This document shows, piece after piece, positions 51,828 through 60,587 of a DNA stretch of 64,000 bases. The translations under genes and the position numbers were made by a program. Position 1 is the first letter of the stretch. Each line of letters begins with the position of its first letter. The notes under the pieces were generated by a model. That model worked only from the letters and a program-made list of their open reading frames with translations, searched no databases and was not told the DNA's origin. Source of the DNA: Gemmatimonadales bacterium. Its GTDB lineage: Bacteria > Gemmatimonadota > Gemmatimonadetes > Gemmatimonadales > GWC2-71-9. The stretch lies in NCBI GenBank assembly GCA_035763805.1, contig DASUAL010000092.1, positions 26,386 through 90,385 of the forward strand. Direction: 5' to 3'.

Positions 51828-52313
51828 CTACAGGCCGAGCGCCAGGGCGGCCCCCTCGTGCTCCAGCAGCCAGCGCTTGCGGTCCAGGCCGCCGCCGAAG
51901 CCCGTCAGCTCGCCGCGCGCTCCGACCACGCGGTGGCAGGGGACGATGATGGGGATGGGGTTCTTCCCGTTGGCGGCGCCGACCGCGCGGGTGGTGCGGC
52001 GGTCGCCGAGGCGGCGGGCCAGCTCGCCGTAGCTCACCGTCGTGCCGTAGGGGATGGCGCGCAGGGCGTCCCATACGCGCCGCTGAAACGGCGTGCCGGC
52101 GGGGCTCAAGGGCAGGTCGAAGGTCGTGCGCGTTCCGGCGAAGTACTCGTCCAACTGTTGCCGGGCGCGCGCGAGGAGGGTGCCGGCGGGACCGCGACCG
52201 TCGGCTTCAACCCGATCCGCCCGCCGGGAGATCGGGAAGGAGACCGCGGTGAGCCCCGCGTCCGAGGCCGTGACGACGAGCTCGCCGAGGGGGCTGGGGA
52301 CGCGAATGAACAT
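51828..52313 (-). CDS. ogt: Methylated-DNA--protein-cysteine methyltransferase
   Basis: 'IPYGTTVSYGELA', active site 'IIVPCHRVV', 'GFGGGLDRKRWLLEHE'. Confidence 0.85.
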   Translation of the reverse strand: MFIRVPSPLGELVVTASDAGLTAVSFPISRRADRVEADGRGPAGTLLARARQQLDEYFAGTRTTFDLPLSPAGTPFQRRVWDALRAIPYGTTVSYGELARRLGDRRTTRAVGAANGKNPIPIIVPCHRVVGARGELTGFGGGLDRKRWLLEHEGAALALGL

Positions 52314-52329
52314 CGTGGGAGCGGTCCGT

Positions 52330-53520
52330 TCAGGCTTCGTCGTGCTTCCGACGCTTGTCCCGGTACAGGGCGCGGTCGGCCCGCTCGAGCAGGCCGGCGA
52401 CCGAGCTCAGGGTGCTCGCCTTGTGCGACGCGAAACCCAGGCTGATCGAGAGCTGATACGGGCGCGCCGCGCGGCGGTTGAACTCGCGCACCTGTCGCTT
52501 CAGTCGGTCCGCGAGGACGCCGGGGCTCTCGGTCCCCGCGTGGCGCACGAGCACCGCGTATTCGTCGCCGCCGATCCGGGCGACGAGGTCCGAGTCGCGA
52601 AACGTCTGCCGCAGGACGACGGCGGTGTCGCGCAGCGCGCGATCACCGACCGCGTGGCCCGCCGTGTCGTTCACGCGCTTGAGATCGTCCAGGTCGGCGA
52701 ACGCCACGAGCAGCGTCTCGTCGCCGCGGCGCGCGAGACGGAGATCCCGCGCCGCGAGCGTCAGGAACCCCCGCCGGTTGTACAACCCGGTCAAATCGTC
52801 GACGAGCGCCAGGTCCAGGAGCGCGGCACGGAGTCGGTTCCGCTCGATCGCGTGGCGCAGCGCCCGGGCGAGGAGCTCGCCGTCGACGGCGCCTTTCACG
52901 AGGACGTCCTGGGCGCCGGCGCGCACCGCTTCGAGCCCACGGCGCTCATCGTCCGTGTCCGAGAGAAAGAGGAATGGCACGGCAGGTGCGAGCGCGCGCA
53001 GCTCCGCGAACGTCGCGAAGCCGCGGCGGGCGGAGAGCGACATGACGAGGAGTACGACGTCGACTCCGCCCTTCGCCAACCGGGCGAGCGACGCCTGCGG
53101 CGCCGCCGCCGCCACGCCGAACTGGTCCCGGGCCGCGCCGTCCAGGAGCTCCCGCACCCAGCGGGCTTGATCGTCCTGGTCGCTCACCACCAGCACGACG
53201 GGCCTGTCGCGCGACCCAGCCTCCGCCTGGCGCCGGGGACCGCGCTGACGGCGATCAGCGCCCTGCCGCCGGTCGAGCTGATCGCGCCGCTCCTCGAGGA
53301 GCGGGACGACCTCCAGGCGGCGCTCGCCGATCCGACGCTCGATGTCACTTCGGCGGGGCGGAAGCAGCCGCCGCTCGGCGGCGTGGTGCTGCTCGCGCGC
53401 GACCATCCCATGTCTCCTGTGCTCCGGCACCTGCAAGATGGGGGACCAGCCCCCTGCTACACAATCGTGCGCATAGCCTTCATCCATCCTCCGGGGCGCC
53501 CAACCCTGCGACCTCGCCAC
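52330..53520 (-). CDS. Diguanylate cyclase (GGDEF) with pseudo-receiver domain and Arg-rich N-terminus
   Basis: 'DDLTGLYNRRGF', 'RIGGDEYAVL'. Receiver-like segment with 'VVLLVMSLS' (acceptor Asp position is Val). Start uncertain (53520/53487/53406). Confidence 0.8.
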   Translation of the reverse strand: MARSQGWAPRRMDEGYAHDCVAGGWSPILQVPEHRRHGMVAREQHHAAERRLLPPRRSDIERRIGERRLEVVPLLEERRDQLDRRQGADRRQRGPRRQAEAGSRDRPVVLVVSDQDDQARWVRELLDGAARDQFGVAAAAPQASLARLAKGGVDVVLLVMSLSARRGFATFAELRALAPAVPFLFLSDTDDERRGLEAVRAGAQDVLVKGAVDGELLARALRHAIERNRLRAALLDLALVDDLTGLYNRRGFLTLAARDLRLARRGDETLLVAFADLDDLKRVNDTAGHAVGDRALRDTAVVLRQTFRDSDLVARIGGDEYAVLVRHAGTESPGVLADRLKRQVREFNRRAARPYQLSISLGFASHKASTLSSVAGLLERADRALYRDKRRKHDEA

Positions 53521-53602
53521 CCCGCTGTCAATTCCAGCGCTGCGCCTTGACCGGCAGCGGGGCGTTCCCTACTGTGGACCACCCTCCAACGCTCTCGACA
53601 AG

Positions 53603-55305: not shown

Positions 55306-57435
55306 CTACTTGCGCCGCTTCGAACCGAGCAACGAATGCCTCACGATGCCGTCGGGCACCGTGTCGCCGTGCGGCACCGTGAATACCGTTTTTCGCGTCA
55401 ACCCGAAATCGAGCTCCACGACCAGGTGACTGCGGTCACGGGCCATTCGCCAGCCCCGGGATGACTTCGGCTCACCGCCGGTGGCCGTCAATGCGGCGGT
55501 CACGACCTCGTCCGGTGGATCGCTCACGGCGGCGAGCTGCGCGCAGGTGGAGCAGCGGCGCGACTGGCGGGCCGGCTCGAGCTGCCCGAGATCCGCGGTG
55601 CATACGTGCCGGCCGCAGTAGCCGCACGCCGCCCGATGTCGCGGGCACGCGTCCTTGCCGCAGATCGGACATTCCTTCACGCCGCCGAGCGAGAACGCCC
55701 GACCGTCCACGTGGCACTGCTTGCGGTGCGCCGGGCAGCCGTATGAGTCCTTCGCGTCGAGCAGTGGCTCGAGGTGGGTGACGCAGTGGCGCTCCTTGTC
55801 CTCGATGCACTCGGCCGAGTGGCCGGCGCAGACGGATCGCCCGCACGAGGCGCAGGGCCCGACCTCATCCGACGCGAACAGCGCGGCCGGTTCGACGGCG
55901 CAGGCGGCCCGATGCCGCGCACAGACCAGGCGCCGCGAGGTGTCGGTGCGGCGCAGGTGTCGCGAGCAGTGCACCTGTCCATCCACGACGCACACGGCCT
56001 GATGCGCCGTGCAGACCGACTTTTCGCAGCTGGCGCACGCCGTCACCTCGTCCACACCCACCGGCTCGTTCGTGCCGCCCTCACAGTAGCGCAGGCAGGC
56101 CGCGCACAGCCGGCGGCTTCCCTTGGGCGCGTCGGCGCCGCTCTGCTGCGCGTGCCGGTTACAGATCACCCGGCCGCAGCTGCCGCAAGGCGCGAGGCAC
56201 GCCGAGCAGGCGGTGTGCCCGCCCTCGGCACACGCACCCTCGTGCGCCGTGCAGTACTGCAGCCGGCACGACGGGCAGACCCGCGCGTGCTCCTCGCACG
56301 CCGGCTGCTCATCCACGCGACACTGGGTGATGCCGTGGTCCGCGCAAAAGTCCTCGGCACACACCGAGCAGCGATATGAGCAGGCCTCACAGCCGCAGTG
56401 GGCCTGCTTGCAGACGACGAGGGTCGCGGGCGGGCGGCCACAATGTGGACACGCCATGATCCAGGCTGCCGCACCACTCAAGGGCCGCTGCGCGCTGAAT
56501 GTTGCCCGACGCCCGCGGGCCGACTCGAGCTGCCACTCCGCCCGCTGCATCACGACGCCGGCCTCGATGAGCTGCAAGGGATGGACGATGGCCCGTACTT
56601 GATTGCGCCGCACTTCCTCGGTGCGGCGCCGCTCGCGCAGCGCCTCGACCGTTGCCATGGACTCCGGATCGCCCTGCTCCTGCAGAATCGACGCGAAGTA
56701 CCGCTCCAGCCTGGCGAGCTCGGCGGCAAGCTCCTGCTCGGCCGCGGCGCGGCGCGCGGCGACCCGCTCCGCCGACTTGTCCCGCAGATTGCCGAGCAGT
56801 AGCCGCAGCAGCTCCGCCGGCTCCCGCGCGGGGACGGCTGCCGCGTCCGCTCCGGCCGACCGATCCGCAGGTCCGACCCGGCCCGCCTCCAGGTCCTGGA
56901 ACAGGCCGGCCAGATCGTCGCCCAGCCGCGCGCCGGCCGACAGGTCATACACGTCGCTTTCCACCACGGCTTCCTCGACCCCGGCACCCGCGCGGAGCAC
57001 AACGCGCGCGATGAGTCGCCCAACCGGATGTACGACCAGCAGTGTCTTGCCCGGCCGCGCCGTGCCGTCGCGCACGGGGACCGCCAGCTCGACGCCCGCG
57101 GGATCGCTCGGGGCGGTCGGCGCCATCAGGCCGACTGAGAGGCGCGCCGCCCGCGCGCGAATCGCCTCGAGCAGCTGAGTGAGGAAGGGGCTGCCCAACA
57201 CCGCTATCTCGGCGTCCGGGTCGCGCTCCAGAGCGTCGAGCGAGAACGCCACCCGCAGCGACTCGCGGTCCCGGAAGAAGGGGCGCTCCCCCTGGGGCAA
57301 GAGCAGCTCGACGTGATCGGCACCGACGGCGGTCTGTTTCACGCCCGCCAGCCGGCAGTAGCGCTCGAGCAGCGGCCGGATGCGCGCGTCGGCGAGGGGA
57401 TCGGTGTCGCCGGGAGCGTGGGGGTGGGCCGTCAC
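55306..57435 (-). CDS. 709-aa uncharacterised protein: alpha/beta N-domain, coiled coil, about 300-aa Cys/His-rich multi-zinc-module array, small C-terminal domain
   Basis: GTG 57435 overlaps the helicase TGA (GTGA). Repeated 'CxxC-x4-C-x2-H' units, e.g. 'CSVCAEDFCADH', 'CPSCRLQYCTAH', 'CASCEKSVCTAH', 'CASCGRSVCAGH', 'CPICGKDACPRH'. The upstream part of the 863-aa ORF overlaps the helicase and is Arg/Gly-rich. Confidence 0.7.
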   Translation of the reverse strand: MTAHPHAPGDTDPLADARIRPLLERYCRLAGVKQTAVGADHVELLLPQGERPFFRDRESLRVAFSLDALERDPDAEIAVLGSPFLTQLLEAIRARAARLSVGLMAPTAPSDPAGVELAVPVRDGTARPGKTLLVVHPVGRLIARVVLRAGAGVEEAVVESDVYDLSAGARLGDDLAGLFQDLEAGRVGPADRSAGADAAAVPAREPAELLRLLLGNLRDKSAERVAARRAAAEQELAAELARLERYFASILQEQGDPESMATVEALRERRRTEEVRRNQVRAIVHPLQLIEAGVVMQRAEWQLESARGRRATFSAQRPLSGAAAWIMACPHCGRPPATLVVCKQAHCGCEACSYRCSVCAEDFCADHGITQCRVDEQPACEEHARVCPSCRLQYCTAHEGACAEGGHTACSACLAPCGSCGRVICNRHAQQSGADAPKGSRRLCAACLRYCEGGTNEPVGVDEVTACASCEKSVCTAHQAVCVVDGQVHCSRHLRRTDTSRRLVCARHRAACAVEPAALFASDEVGPCASCGRSVCAGHSAECIEDKERHCVTHLEPLLDAKDSYGCPAHRKQCHVDGRAFSLGGVKECPICGKDACPRHRAACGYCGRHVCTADLGQLEPARQSRRCSTCAQLAAVSDPPDEVVTAALTATGGEPKSSRGWRMARDRSHLVVELDFGLTRKTVFTVPHGDTVPDGIVRHSLLGSKRRK

Positions 57436-59561
57436 GCGGCGGAGTCCCCCACCAGTGGCGCCGCGGCGTCCGCCTCGATGTCCACCAGCACCAGGGGAAG
57501 CCGGTCCACCTGCGCCACGAGCACGACGGACCGTCCGGCGTCGGTCACTCCGGTGAGCCGCACCAGCGCGCCGTACTCCGGATGCTCGCCCGCCGGCTCC
57601 GGCGTCGTAACGCTCTCGATCGCCTCGAGCACTTCCTTCACGTGCACGCCGACCTTGTGGCGCTTCGCGTCCCAGCCGGTCGCCTTGACGAGCTGGCTCG
57701 TGCCGTAGCCGAGTCGCAGGCGGCCCGGGACCGACAGCGTCTGGAACCGTCGCTCGAGCCGCATGGCGTTGTCGTCCGGCGCGATGAGGGAGTTCAGTTG
57801 TTCCTGCTCCTTGCCTGCCGCGCGGCTGTGCTCGATCTCGGCGCCGATCGTTTCCACCCGGCGCGCGAAGTCCGCTTCGCTGTCGGCGGCGAGCCACTCT
57901 TCCGCCAGCCGGCCCTCGAACTGCTGCGCGCCCCCGAACTCGCCGAGGATCACGTCCAGCTCGCCCACGACCAGCTCGAACAGCTTGATCTTCTGGTCGA
58001 GCAGGCCGAGGATGTACGACTCGATGGTCCCCGCGGCGGCGAGGTTCACGATGTGGACCTCGCGCGTCTGCCCGATACGGTGGAGGCGCCCGATGCGTTG
58101 CTCGACGACCATCGGGTTCCAGGGCAAGTCAAAGTTCACGAGCACGTTGCAGAACTGGAGGTTGCGTCCTTCGCTGCCCGCGCGGGTGGCGATCAGGACG
58201 CTGCGGTCGTCCTGGTGGAAGGCGCGGATGCGCTTGTCTCGCTCGGGTGTCGAGTGAGTGCCCCAATAGACGATCGGCTTGCGACCGAGTGCCTTGACCT
58301 GCCGCTCGATCAGCTGGATGGTGGGCTTGTGGTCGCTGAAGACCACCACCCGATCCGGGGTCTCCTGCAGCAGCTCGGTGAGCACGTCCAGCTTGGCGTG
58401 GGTGTCGATCTGCCGCGCCCGCTCAGCGAGCCGGCGCGCGATCTCGCGGTACTCAGGACTGACCTGCTCTCCCTCGGCGAGGTGCTCGAGTGATTCGCCG
58501 AGCGCGCGCGAGGAGGAGCACAGCCGCTGGCGCAGGTGGATCACCGCGAGCTGCAGGATCCCCTTCCCCGTACGCCGACGGCGCCGGGCTCCGTCCTCCA
58601 CCTCCTCCTGCTCGCTGGGCTGAATGAATCCTTCCTTATACAGGCGGCGCAGGAACTGGGTGGTGCTGTCGTACAGCTCCGCCTCGGCGGGCGTCAGCCG
58701 GACCTCGGGGTGTCGGGGGCGGCGCGGCGGCAGGTCCAGATCGTCCACCACGCTGGCGCGCCGCGTGCGGACCATCACCTCGTGCGTCAGCGCGCGCAGG
58801 GCGTCGGGGTCGCGGGGAGTGCGGTGGTCGCCGGCGACCAGGTGCTGACGGCGGAACTCCGGCCAGGTGCCGAGCTGCCCCGGCCGGAGCAGCGTGACGA
58901 GGTTGTACAGCTCGCGCAGGTCGTTCTGGAGCGGCGTCGCGGTGAGCAGCAGGATGAAGTCCCGCTCGATTTTCTCGATGAACCGATACGTCGCGCCGCG
59001 GTGGCTCTTGACCTTGTGCGCCTCGTCCACGATCACGAGATCCCAGCGATGCCGTAGGATCTCCTCGGCGTGCCGGCGCGCCCGCGCGCGGTCGTGCGAC
59101 ACGATCGCCTTGGTGACGCGGTGCCAGTCGTCGGGGTCGGTCGGCGTGTCGAAGCGCTCGAAGAACTTCTCCTCGAGCTCCCCCTGCCACTGGCCCACCA
59201 GCGAGGCCGGCGTCAGGATGAGCACGCGGCGGGCGAGCCCGCGAATCGCCAGCTCCTTGTAGATGATGCTCGCCTCGATCGTCTTGCCCAGGCCGACCTC
59301 GTCGGCGAGGATCGCGCGGCCGCCCATGTGGCGCAGCACTCGCTGCGCGACGTCGATCTGGTGGGGCAGCTCCTTGATGGCGTTGGCGTCGAGGGTGATC
59401 AGGCGGTCGAAGCCGGGGACCAGGGCGATGCGTTCCGCGTCGCGCCGCAGCTCGTACCAGGCGCGCACGGCGGGGGGCTGCTTGAGCTTTTCGGCGAACG
59501 CCTGGAGGGAGCGCTCGTCAACAGCCCAGGAGTCGTCGGACAGCGGGTCGGGCAGCGTCAT
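57432..59561 (-). CDS. SNF2-family helicase/ATPase (RapA/HepA-like core) with about 170-aa unknown C-terminal extension
   Basis: Motif I 'LADEVGLGKTIEA', motif II 'LVIVDEAHKVKS', 'LLLTATPLQN', 'LIATRAGSEGRNLQ', motif VI 'QRIGRLHRIGQT'. Confidence 0.9.
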   Translation of the reverse strand: MTLPDPLSDDSWAVDERSLQAFAEKLKQPPAVRAWYELRRDAERIALVPGFDRLITLDANAIKELPHQIDVAQRVLRHMGGRAILADEVGLGKTIEASIIYKELAIRGLARRVLILTPASLVGQWQGELEEKFFERFDTPTDPDDWHRVTKAIVSHDRARARRHAEEILRHRWDLVIVDEAHKVKSHRGATYRFIEKIERDFILLLTATPLQNDLRELYNLVTLLRPGQLGTWPEFRRQHLVAGDHRTPRDPDALRALTHEVMVRTRRASVVDDLDLPPRRPRHPEVRLTPAEAELYDSTTQFLRRLYKEGFIQPSEQEEVEDGARRRRRTGKGILQLAVIHLRQRLCSSSRALGESLEHLAEGEQVSPEYREIARRLAERARQIDTHAKLDVLTELLQETPDRVVVFSDHKPTIQLIERQVKALGRKPIVYWGTHSTPERDKRIRAFHQDDRSVLIATRAGSEGRNLQFCNVLVNFDLPWNPMVVEQRIGRLHRIGQTREVHIVNLAAAGTIESYILGLLDQKIKLFELVVGELDVILGEFGGAQQFEGRLAEEWLAADSEADFARRVETIGAEIEHSRAAGKEQEQLNSLIAPDDNAMRLERRFQTLSVPGRLRLGYGTSQLVKATGWDAKRHKVGVHVKEVLEAIESVTTPEPAGEHPEYGALVRLTGVTDAGRSVVLVAQVDRLPLVLVDIEADAAAPLVGDSAA

Positions 59562-60098: not shown

Positions 60099-60338
60099 AA
60101 GCCACCTCCAACTAGGGCACCAACCTACTGCTGCAGCCGCCATGCCTCGGCTCGGCAGCAACACAGCTCGATTGCCCGCAAGGGGTTAGCCTTTTGGATC
60201 CGTTCGAATCGGTGCAGGGTGCAGCATGCCGGCGCTGGCTGAAGTGTGGTACAACTGCTACGGACGACGTGCGGCGCGGCCCAGTGCTCGTCGGCCCACT
60301 TGCACGGCGGGTCGCGGGCTCCTACTCTCTCGACGGCC

Positions 60339-60587
60339 ATGTCACCCGCAACGCGCTACATCATCCAGGTGGACCGACCCGGCGAGCAGGTCGACATGGC
60401 GGCAATCCGAGTTCTGCTCGAGGGGGCGGGGGTCGCGTTGGACCCCGCCTACGGCCCGATCCCCATCAATCCCAAGCTCGGTCGCTACGTCGTCCGCGGT
60501 ACGGCCTCGCCCGACGCGCGCGCTCGGGCCGAGCAGATTCCCGGCGTGCGCTTCTTCGCGGACACGGTCCAGGAGCCGGCTTCCTGA
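60339..60587 (+). CDS. 82-aa protein paralogous to the subtilase N-terminal (I9-propeptide-like) domain
   Basis: 'RYIIQV..VLLEGAGVALDPAYGPIPI..RYVVRGTASPDARARAEQIPGVRFFADTVQEP' aligns by eye with the subtilase 'RRIVVI..VLLDGMVKVAGVRFDEAYYPVRI..TYAVRVEIDDEDAVERLRRDRRAEFIGVFADPAVSP'. Weak RBS; alternative GTG at 60246. Confidence 0.5.
   Translation: MSPATRYIIQVDRPGEQVDMAAIRVLLEGAGVALDPAYGPIPINPKLGRYVVRGTASPDARARAEQIPGVRFFADTVQEPAS

Follow-up and report, generated by a model that had tools for sequence, protein, structure and literature searches.

A conserved chain of small predicted zinc-binding units in the partner protein of a RapA-type SNF2 ATPase from a Gemmatimonadales bacterium

In the window, that is, the stretch of 64,000 nucleotides of Gemmatimonadales DNA analyzed here, a cysteine-rich stretch at positions 55543-56451 of the minus strand is a real conserved chain of about 20 small predicted zinc-binding units. 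The chain occupies residues 329-631 of a 709-residue "hypothetical protein" of no known family (55306-57435, minus strand), called here the partner, which is 100% identical to a protein from a Gemmatimonadales MAG. A scaffold or spacer is the reading of this array that we favor. On the whole, the array could be a zinc-stapled rod with interleaved metal sites, carried by the partner of a RapA-like SNF2 motor, the two chains making up one enzyme; we consider this overall account evenly poised between right and wrong.

Residue 329 begins at 56451 and residue 631 finishes at 55543 in a gene that starts with the GTG at 57435, and the limits drawn for the array by the first-pass annotation were therefore exact. 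Between residues 321 and 640 there are 45 Cys, the number estimated at that time, and 18 His. The exact pattern C-x2-C-x4-C-x2-H occurs six times (at residues 356, 387, 417, 467, 528 and 589) and a variant, C-x2-C-x4-C-x2-D, is found at 604. The early figure of about seven modules counted only intact units and was too low, since the periodic structure comprises about 20 units of 15 residues, C-x2-C/D-x4-C-x2-H/C/D-x3, many of them partly degenerate, grouped into five super-repeats of 61 residues. Compared with 2000 shuffles, the autocorrelation of Cys had its maxima at lags 15 (z 5.0) and 61 (z 7.5). A comparison of the profile with itself showed the same period of 61, with an off-diagonal match at that offset over 206 columns (E 3e-21).

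The array opens with a head (residues 329-355; 56371-56451, minus strand) of the form C329xxC332 ... C342 ... H346 C347 x C349xxC352, which contributes an extra leading CxxC knuckle and whose spacing, "20 7 8", is common to the whole family. In the diverse alignment (A2), C329, C332, C342, H346 and C352 are invariant. The units at residues 356-466 (56038-56370, minus strand) include one slot that has lost two elements, the CxxC of unit 432 and also the CxxH of unit 451. They are followed by the super-repeat at residues 467-527 (55855-56037, minus strand), made of four units: a full one, one with C-x2-D and C-x2-H, one with C-x2-H alone and one with C-x2-E alone. The next super-repeat, residues 528-588 (55672-55854, minus strand), is absent from about half of the close orthologues; alignment A1 presents a clean gap of 61 residues at this block, and the orthologues without it form the 16-unit class, in keeping with the length classes of 237 and 298 residues. 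The last units (residues 589-631; 55543-55671, minus strand) end in a capping knuckle, C628xxC631, both of whose Cys are invariant in 16/16 diverse members. Beyond the array there is a small C-terminal domain (residues 640-709; 55309-55518, minus strand), modeled by AF2 as one helix and four strands, with an invariant W662 (alignment A2) and a basic tail ending in KRRK. The net charge of this tail region varies from -3 to +9 across the family and is positive in most members. The AF2 fragment model of the array itself (pLDDT 90.8, pTM 0.70) has a regular strand-turn-strand pattern, which is also present in the units without ligands.

The comparison of orthologues that the first-pass annotation had asked for bore it out on both points, the maintenance of the ligands and the variation in repeat number. 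No Cys or His varies in 41 orthologues, nor in six orthologues of 33-50% identity. At the latter level the Asp residues that take the place of Cys at unit position 4 (D375, D485, D546 and D577) are likewise invariant, and across the family Asp and Cys exchange with each other at this position. The number of units differs between family members: among 142 full-length members, array lengths fall into classes of about 110, 170, 237, 267-280, 298, 356 and 398 residues, and two haloarchaeal arrays reach 632 and 809 residues. In this way array length changes stepwise across the family, from about 7 to 54 units.

Regarding the metal sites, the pattern of ligands suggests that each zinc, which we assume to be the metal although iron is conceivable, is most likely held by the CxxC of unit n together with the CxxH of unit n+1. 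With such a pairing, neighboring sites would interlock, like the cross-brace of a FYVE or B-box finger continued along the chain, and there would be about 16 predicted zinc sites using all 45 Cys. By counts made by eye on the gap strings, the CxxC of one unit has been lost three times in this array together with the CxxH of the following one. The same joint loss recurs at different positions in several distant members of the family, among them P0238 (twice), P0248, P0249/P0259 and P0277/P0280, and in the Halorhabdus protein. Furthermore, the array is bounded by an extra CxxC at its start and by an extra capping CxxC at its end, both invariant. It is possible that the sites are sequential, with four ligands within one unit binding each metal; in the same inspection by eye, no clean loss of a within-unit pair was seen, and loss of an adjacent pair was seen in one case (P0259). 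Interleaved sites would be the most economical account of the jointly lost knuckles, and they agree with a local FYVE-like structural match (1y02).

The array fits no sequence family in Pfam, NCBIfam, PADLOC or the PDB. Scans of the partner against Pfam, NCBIfam and PADLOC assigned it to no family (0 PADLOC families at E<=1), and the same scans of seven distant and diverse relatives gave the same outcome. In particular, no Pfam zinc-finger model matched the partner or these relatives at E<=1, so that a B-box, to which its sites had initially been likened, is not supported. B-box (PF00643) shares with it the sub-motif C-x2-C-x4-C-x2-H alone. A search of PDB sequences with the perfectly regular array of P0251 returned no match. 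The sole PDB sequence match to the family profile was the C2HC5 finger of ASC-1/TRIP4 (8alz_A, residues 173-219; E 0.086, non-significant); both have CxxCGxxVC...CxxCGxxVC, but ASC-1/TRIP4 is a single short domain and its Pfam model does not match the partner.

In FYVE, B-box and AN1 fingers two adjacent knuckles bind different zinc ions, and the core C-x2-C-(G)-x3-C-x2-C/H is common to these fingers and to the array units. The unit motif CxxCGxxxCxx(H/C) corresponds to the FYVE core motif, C-x2-C-G-x3-C-x2-C, which is present in several units of the array. Foldseek gave local FYVE-type matches to 1y02 (47 columns, rmsd 1.5 A, probability 0.96, E 1.4) and 2yw8 (probability 0.92, E 1.6). The lipid-binding motifs of FYVE domains, WxxD and R(R/K)HHCR, are absent from the array sequence. 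Moreover, FYVE, B-box and AN1 fingers are closed two-zinc modules of 40-70 residues, whereas the interlocking proposed here would run through about 19 slots. The best overall fold match was to tandem LIM domains (2xjy_A, E 0.022, probability 0.84), followed by 2rgt and 1rut, with no match at E<=0.001. Tandem LIM domains, as in LMO2, LMO4 and Lhx3, are elongated zinc-stapled rods of beta-hairpins and are the nearest folds to the array. The last ligand of LIM domains can be Cys, His or Asp, as in the array. However, the knuckles of LIM domains (C-x2-C-x16-23-H-x2-C-x2-C-x2-C-x16-21-C-x2-(C/H/D)) are separated by 16-23 residues and each zinc takes up about 27, compared with knuckle gaps of 7 and 8 and 15 residues per slot in the array, which has no Pfam match to PF00412. 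In addition, LIM sites are sequential and those of the array are probably interleaved. The CHY zinc-finger region of Pirh2 is a run of short beta-hairpins, each providing zinc ligands; its fold match to the array was weak and non-significant (2dkt, E 0.73) and it has only a few zinc sites. When the complete model was compared by Foldseek, resemblances to MHC-like MR1 chains (probability 0.02-0.06) and to adenovirus fibres were dismissed as chance.

Directly upstream of the partner lies the gene of an SNF2-family ATPase of 709 residues (57432-59561, minus strand), of the RapA/BrxHII type. The GTG start of the partner (57435-57433) overlaps the TGA stop of the ATPase (57434-57432) in the sequence GTGA (57432-57435, minus strand), an arrangement typical of translational coupling. 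In our own tally, the ATPase was directly upstream of the partner in 33/34 informative loci, including the haloarchaeal plasmids, and one locus (L022) contained the partner with no adjoining ATPase. In two metagenomic single ORFs, P0145 and P0177, the C-terminus of the ATPase is fused to the N-terminus of the partner. Neither the ATPase nor the N-terminal region of the partner had been covered by the first-pass annotation.

The ATPase matches the Pfam models SNF2-rel_dom (1.4e-32) and Helicase_C (1.1e-20) as well as the PADLOC model BrxHI|BrxHII (2e-68). By BLASTP it has 27% identity with E. coli RapA (residues 65-504 against RapA 155-608, E 1e-31), and the profile of its family matches RapA with an E value of 5e-41. 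It stays far under every NCBIfam cut-off (RapA, DrmD, DpdE and ZorD); for the full-length RapA model NF003426 it scored 200 bits against a cut-off of 576, and the partner had no NCBIfam match. RapA has an N-terminal Tudor domain, which the ATPase lacks: its alignment begins at residue 112 or 155 of RapA, and about 60 residues precede the ATPase core where RapA has its tandem Tudor. At the other end, the ATPase has about 130 extra C-terminal residues, so that its lack of a RapA-like C-terminal part is tentative.

The first 320 or so residues of the partner (56476-57435, minus strand) resemble, in their predicted structure, the C-terminal part of RapA. The support comes mainly from Foldseek, where the AF2 model (mean pLDDT 84) matched the RapA structures 8spg, 8t0l_F and 6bog_A with E values of 2e-6 to 7e-6, a probability of 1.0 and 305-314 aligned columns. 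The hhalign comparison of partner residues 4-285 with RapA 700-967 was weak (E 0.005, probability 7%), Pfam RapA_C did not match the partner, and subdomain comparisons by hhalign of the ATPase C-terminus with the partner N-terminus, and of each with RapA, were negative or weak. The SNF2 ATPases E. coli RapA (HepA) and BrxHII of type-3 BREX both end in two alpha+beta domains, and the published description of these domains agrees with the topology of the N-terminal region (PMC12839542). According to Foldseek and hhalign, this domain pair, one element of which is a sheet with two long helices, is present here on the partner, and the ATPase seems to have no RapA-like C-terminal part. In RapA and BrxHII, on the other hand, that part is on the same chain as the motor, and both lack the 300-residue array that accompanies it here.

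Taken together, these observations are compatible with the following model. Each unit would begin with a beta-hairpin knuckle, CxxC (or CxxD); four residues would separate it from a turn with CxxH (or C/D), three more would complete the unit, and a chain of about 20 units would make a stiff, metal-stapled rod. This rod would connect the RapA-like N-terminal region to the small beta domain at the C-terminus. Since the ATPase apparently lacks a RapA-like part of its own, the N-terminal region probably docks the partner onto it, and a RapA-like enzyme would be rebuilt from two chains. The rod could then be a scaffold or spacer whose fixed length determines how far the C-terminal domain stands from the motor, and evolution would tune this length by gain or loss of blocks of 30 or 61 residues. 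The elongated LIM-type fold matches, the length classes and the nearly neutral charge of most arrays favor such a rod or spacer. In the weakest step of the model, the pair would use ATP to remodel complexes of proteins with DNA or RNA. If the model is true, the array would surpass in length every other regular chain of zinc sites that we could relate to a solved structure, and would be a rod of natural origin tuned in fixed steps, and the SNF2 motor with its zinc-rod partner would constitute an unnamed two-gene module, in which a RapA-like enzyme is split over two proteins. The papers on RapA that were consulted barely treat the role of its C-terminal domains, and therefore a version of them on a separate subunit would, if real, make this role testable.

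The pair occurs in Gemmatimonadota and haloarchaea and also in MAGs that carry the labels Planctomycetes and Gaiellales. The locus search returned almost only Gemmatimonadota MAGs because its alignment pattern was specific for this clade, and its result is unfit to judge the patchiness of the family. A phage origin was discarded, as tblastn gave no match in 50,697 phage records. In the window the neighbors of the pair are genes for a GGDEF response regulator, a carbonic anhydrase, a subtilase, a TetR regulator and an enoyl-CoA hydratase, with no nuclease or other effector adjoining it. The type-3 BREX genes (methyltransferase, PglZ and BrxC-type ATPase) are found neither beside this pair nor at the loci of its relatives.

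Another interpretation takes the pair for a local counterpart of RapA, with a housekeeping role in the release of stalled or post-termination RNA polymerase, in which contact with the polymerase would pass from the missing Tudor domain to the rod or to the C-terminal domain. The similarity of the ATPase to RapA or BrxHII, the RapA-like N-terminal region of the partner and the wide presence of the pair in ordinary chromosomal surroundings in Gemmatimonadota are all in line with it. The N-terminal domain of RapA binds the zinc-binding domain of the polymerase beta' subunit (bioRxiv 10.1101/2024.09.28.614012), and the ATPase lacks this domain. However, some MAGs contain up to three paralogues (L018, L032 and L040 in one bin), other lineages join the pair to nucleases, a kinase or an AAA ATPase, and the archaeal copies are located on megaplasmids, so the pair looks more like an accessory system and we regard the housekeeping role as unlikely.

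The array could also be a chain of nucleic-acid-binding fingers, each unit touching a few nucleotides, that reads or measures DNA or RNA for the motor. It is the partner of a nucleic-acid-dependent SNF2 motor, stepwise length variation would suit a ruler, and the first three ligands show the C-x2-C-x4 spacing of retroviral CCHC knuckles. But the net charge of the array, which ranges from -18 to +14 across the family, is near neutral or negative in most members, and the Halorhabdus array is strongly acidic, with 120 Asp+Glu against 25 Lys+Arg. The "nucleic-acid ruler" of the first-pass annotation thus gets no backing from charge. Moreover, the array unit, C-x2-C-x4-C-x2-H, differs from the CCHC knuckle (PF00098; C-x2-C-x4-H-x4-C), Pfam zf-CCHC gave no match, and the alignments show no conserved base-stacking aromatic like that of CCHC knuckles. 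A finger chain is accordingly rather improbable.

The suggestion of a redox-sensitive switch would make the array a redox or metal sensor, in which the rod would unfold, and the motor be switched on or off, once the 45 or so thiolates are oxidized or the metal is lost. Zinc-thiolate sites do act as redox switches, for example in Hsp33 and RsrA. Genes for DUF1257, DUF2997, radical-SAM and thioredoxin proteins come after the pair in some distant loci, and in cyanobacteria those for DUF2997 and DUF1257 form a cluster with one for ferredoxin (PMC4284462). Neither the window nor the Gemmatimonadota loci have these neighbors, and a switch would require neither stepwise lengths nor the invariance of every site; we give this reading little probability.

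Still more remote would be a metal store or buffer of the metallothionein type, or a chain of rubredoxin-like iron sites: the Cys content is very high and a viral fold library gave a weak match to "prokaryotic metallothionein" (E 0.02), but the fixed spacing, the His and Asp ligands, the confident regular beta structure and the obligate linkage to an ATPase are unlike metallothioneins, and no conserved redox partner adjoins the array. Finally, an artefact of a wrong frame or of compositional noise in a genome of 70% GC, where many long overlapping ORFs cover the region on both strands, is refuted by conservation and has practically no chance of being true. Of the 8000 candidates that were scored, 496 were homologous at E<=0.001, their Cys and His being invariant, and homologues are also present in cultured haloarchaea. 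Together with a GC3 of 0.87 in the partner gene and a bias of substitutions against orthologous DNA (L012) toward codon position 3 (231, against 101 and 87 at the other two), this upholds the frame and marks a genuine conserved array of metal-ligand residues.

Returning to the rod and its motor, the operons with nucleases in other lineages suggest a role of the pair in DNA surveillance or defence. On the two haloarchaeal plasmids an Mrr_cat gene is located downstream of the pair, in Haloferax overlapping the partner ORF by 4 nt, and at one locus (L010) the gene that immediately precedes the ATPase encodes an SNase. PADLOC-DB 2.0 has no defence family for the partner, and the recurrent neighbors gave only generic AAA matches to IetA. 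Searches of the literature, of incomplete coverage, on the pairing of DUF1257 with DUF2997, on tandem zinc ribbons and on SNF2 with Mrr found no description of the partner protein. Tentatively, and with more doubt than confidence, an interlocked rod of about 7-54 units could serve as a ruler or lever arm for a split RapA/BrxHII-like motor that, with Mrr or SNase in some lineages, would form an undescribed surveillance or defence system. Since Haloferax and Halorhabdus, whose plasmid copies adjoin a gene for an Mrr nuclease, are cultured organisms, the system is testable in them.

The partner gene occupies 55306-57435 on the minus strand, where a 3' end at 55306 and a sole plausible start, a GTG at 57435, define a product of 709 residues that is identical to a "hypothetical protein" of a Gemmatimonadales MAG. 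In the sequence, this GTG and the TGA with which the upstream gene stops overlap as GTGA. The Cys-rich array (56451-55543, minus strand) corresponds exactly to residues 329-631. Counting gave 45 Cys and 18 His within residues 321-640, in agreement with the roughly 45 cysteines reported by the first-pass annotation, and the exact motif C-x2-C-x4-C-x2-H was found six times in the protein, with one C-x2-C-x4-C-x2-D variant. Compositional noise in a wrong frame had been named as one way in which this reading could fail; judging from the codon pattern, the frame is correct, since GC3 is 0.87 and most differences from orthologous DNA fall on third codon positions (231 against 101 and 87 in locus L012, for example).

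A word-indexed search, in which 8000 candidates were scored, yielded 496 relatives at E<=0.001. Among the best 120 of these 496, which were the ones listed, all source names were Gemmatimonadales or Gemmatimonadetes. The Cys and His positions of the array are conserved among orthologues: all of them are invariant in 41 of the listed relatives and, together with D375, D485, D546 and D577 (the Asp at position 4 of a unit), in six orthologues of 33-50% identity. The number of repeats does vary, as precisely one block of 61 residues (526-586) is missing from about half the close orthologues and about 30 residues are missing from another. An exhaustive profile search at E<=0.001 gave 345 cluster representatives, including full-length proteins only 20-26% identical to the window partner. 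Full-length relatives have in common the N-terminal region, the array and a small C-terminal domain in which one Trp is invariant; in the array of some of them, P0251 for example, CxxCGxxxCxxH is repeated almost perfectly. In 142 full-length members the array falls into length classes of about 110, 170, 237, 267-280, 298, 356 and 398 residues. In a separate protein, P0282 (645 aa, JGI metagenome), a short Cys module similar to the head of the array occurs four times after a ubiquitin-conjugating E2-like domain (PF00179), so the zinc module also exists outside the family of SNF2 partners.

Autocorrelation of the cysteines showed peaks at lags 15 (z 5.0) and 61 (z 7.5) against 2000 shuffles. In the 15-residue register, the array consists of about 20 units C1-x2-C4-x4-C9-x2-H12-x3, each with a CxxC knuckle (K1) and a CxxH knuckle (K2); seven units are intact, others have Asp at position 4 (CRVD, CVVD, CIED, CHVD) and some retain a single knuckle. 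Four units make up a super-repeat of 61 residues, and comparison of the profile with itself gave a match at offset 61 over 206 columns (E 3e-21). The tandem repeat described initially is thus real, but its "about 7 modules" counted the intact units only; many of the roughly 20 units are partly degenerate.

A probable pairing of the zinc ligands emerges from the way in which knuckles are lost. In the window partner, each of the three site losses removes K1 of one unit (n) and K2 of the following unit (n+1). The "long, 7, long" gaps that result are found again, elsewhere along the array, in distant members and in a Halorhabdus protein. Sequential sites, formed within each unit, are possible; when gap strings were read by eye, one case of adjacent-pair loss and no clean within-unit pair loss were seen. 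An extra leading K1 (C329xxC332) and an extra terminal cap (C628xxC631) are invariant across the family. We infer interleaved sites, in which each zinc would be held by K1 of one unit and K2 of the next, interlocking successive units, because this pairing explains both the knuckle losses and the extra end knuckles with no ligands left over; it predicts 16 zinc sites that use all 45 Cys. The proposal would continue along the chain the same scheme as the cross-brace of FYVE and B-box domains. The interleaving of zinc sites suggested earlier is accordingly favoured by the loss pattern read from the sequence.

The predicted model of residues 461-624 (pLDDT 90.8, pTM 0.70) shows a regular loop-strand-turn-strand that persists even in units without ligands. 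No PDB structure matched it at E<=0.001; the best fold matches were tandem LIM domains (E 0.022), with PHD, RBR and CHY zinc proteins ranking next, and FYVE domains fitted well over a local stretch (47 columns, rmsd 1.5 A, probability 0.96). PDB sequence searches gave one non-significant match, an ASC-1 zinc-finger, with the family profile and no match with the regular array.

The gene directly upstream (57432-59561, minus strand) encodes an ATPase with intact SNF2 and Helicase_C domains, which is 27% identical to E. coli RapA in pairwise alignment (E 5e-41 with the family profile). It also resembles DrmD, BrxH and DpdE, with scores below every curated cut-off. In the AF2 model of the partner (mean pLDDT 84), the N-terminal region comprises an alpha/beta subdomain and, after it, a beta-sheet bearing two long helices, and Foldseek against the PDB retrieved three RapA entries (E 2e-6 to 7e-6, probability 1.0, 305-314 columns). 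A profile alignment placed partner residues 4-285 on RapA 700-967 (E 0.005, low probability). As the ATPase aligns confidently with RapA only to about residue 690 and the partner N-terminus resembles the C-terminal part of RapA, the two genes together resemble a RapA-type enzyme divided between two chains, leaving aside the exact split point. The two-domain arrangement of the partner N-terminal region is just what a 2026 analysis reports for the C-termini of RapA and BrxHII; for the second of these domains it found no further homologues (PMC12839542). In a viral fold library, the full partner model matched uncharacterised giant-virus proteins (Edafosvirus, Hyperionvirus, Harvfovirus, Bodo saltans virus); these and phage protein matches had E values of 1e-7 to 1e-4 over 200-500 columns.

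By a hand tally over the loci of examined relatives plus archaeal loci, 33 of the 34 loci with enough sequence to judge carry a gene for a homologous SNF2 ATPase immediately upstream of the partner and on its strand. The exception is L022 (5953-7974), where the partner homologue has no adjacent SNF2 gene and sits between MacB/FtsX permease and OPT transporter genes; alignment of this homologue with the window protein leaves out its first 50 or so residues. In L008 one gene intervenes, and the metagenomic ORFs P0145 and P0177 run from the ATPase C-terminus into the partner N-terminus within a single reading frame. P0247 (325 aa) fuses ATPase residues 14-128 and partner residues 539-707 in a single ORF, which is either what a deletion has left of the two-gene unit or a product of misassembly. 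At L028 (3893-5941), the ATPase homologue matches as three abutting or near-abutting pieces that are not in one frame, which suggests frameshifts, whether in a pseudogene or from sequencing errors.

The array is near neutral in charge in most members and strongly acidic in one haloarchaeon, which speaks against the rod binding nucleic acid in a general way along its length; a mildly basic charge is seen in the C-terminal domain. From these charges we favour a rigid spacer or scaffold, which would stand between an ATPase-docking N-terminal region and the C-terminal domain. Neither the zinc-knuckle principle nor the SNF2 motor is new; in the libraries and papers searched, whose coverage of the literature is incomplete, we found no description of three features, namely the continuous array, its length that changes in steps, and the detached RapA-type C-terminal region as the place where it sits.

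In the window and in other Gemmatimonadota loci, the pair stands alone among ordinary genes, and synteny with close relatives is only partial; in this phylum a RapA-like housekeeping role is possible. PADLOC recognised no defence family in the partner and its recurrent neighbours beyond generic AAA matches. Elsewhere the pair is joined to nuclease genes, including an Mrr-type gene that follows ATPase and partner on haloarchaeal megaplasmids, and this favours an accessory role in DNA surveillance or defence for the family. The megaplasmid ATPase is 36% identical to that of the window (E 7e-104), and the N-terminal regions of the partners are homologous (hhalign probability 96%). In Haloferax lucentense successive ORFs (SNF2, partner, Mrr) share 4 nt at each junction, and the partner has 1245 aa with an 809-residue array. 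Another locus adds an SNase nuclease gene. Three distant versions of the pair (L001, 4559-11549; L002, 1388-7742; L007, 2267-4762) are accompanied by DUF1257 and DUF2997. In L001 and L002 the SNF2 gene is also directly preceded by a gene for a classical AAA ATPase, and L001 and L007 each contain a radical-SAM-like gene; against PADLOC, this neighbour set gave only the generic AAA matches. At the distant locus L003 (5306-7984), a Ser/Thr protein kinase domain stands at the N-terminus of the SNF2 ATPase, whose gene is preceded by a second kinase gene.

Several minor observations concern annotation and assembly. On H. lucentense plasmid pSVX82-3 (NZ_CP104744.1; L046, 5912-9649, plus strand), the intact 1245-aa ORF is absent from the gene table, which gives three small antisense "hypothetical" genes at that position; this reflects either a gap in the annotation or an incomplete table. 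MAG M3-44_Bin_147 holds three different copies of the pair (L018, L032, L040), and two contigs of MAG STL-GEM5 (L025, L026) are identical over all 14 kb compared, which points to a large duplication or assembly redundancy. In the window, a 485-aa plus-strand ORF (52093-53550) runs antisense across the whole GGDEF response-regulator gene (52330-53520, minus strand). Since Pfam domains occur only in the minus-strand product, the plus-strand ORF fits the type of spurious ORF to be expected at 70% GC. A 113-aa plus-strand ORF (60246-60587) had no match in a Pfam search and is probably a real small gene; an 81% identical sequence adjoins a subtilase homologue in L017.
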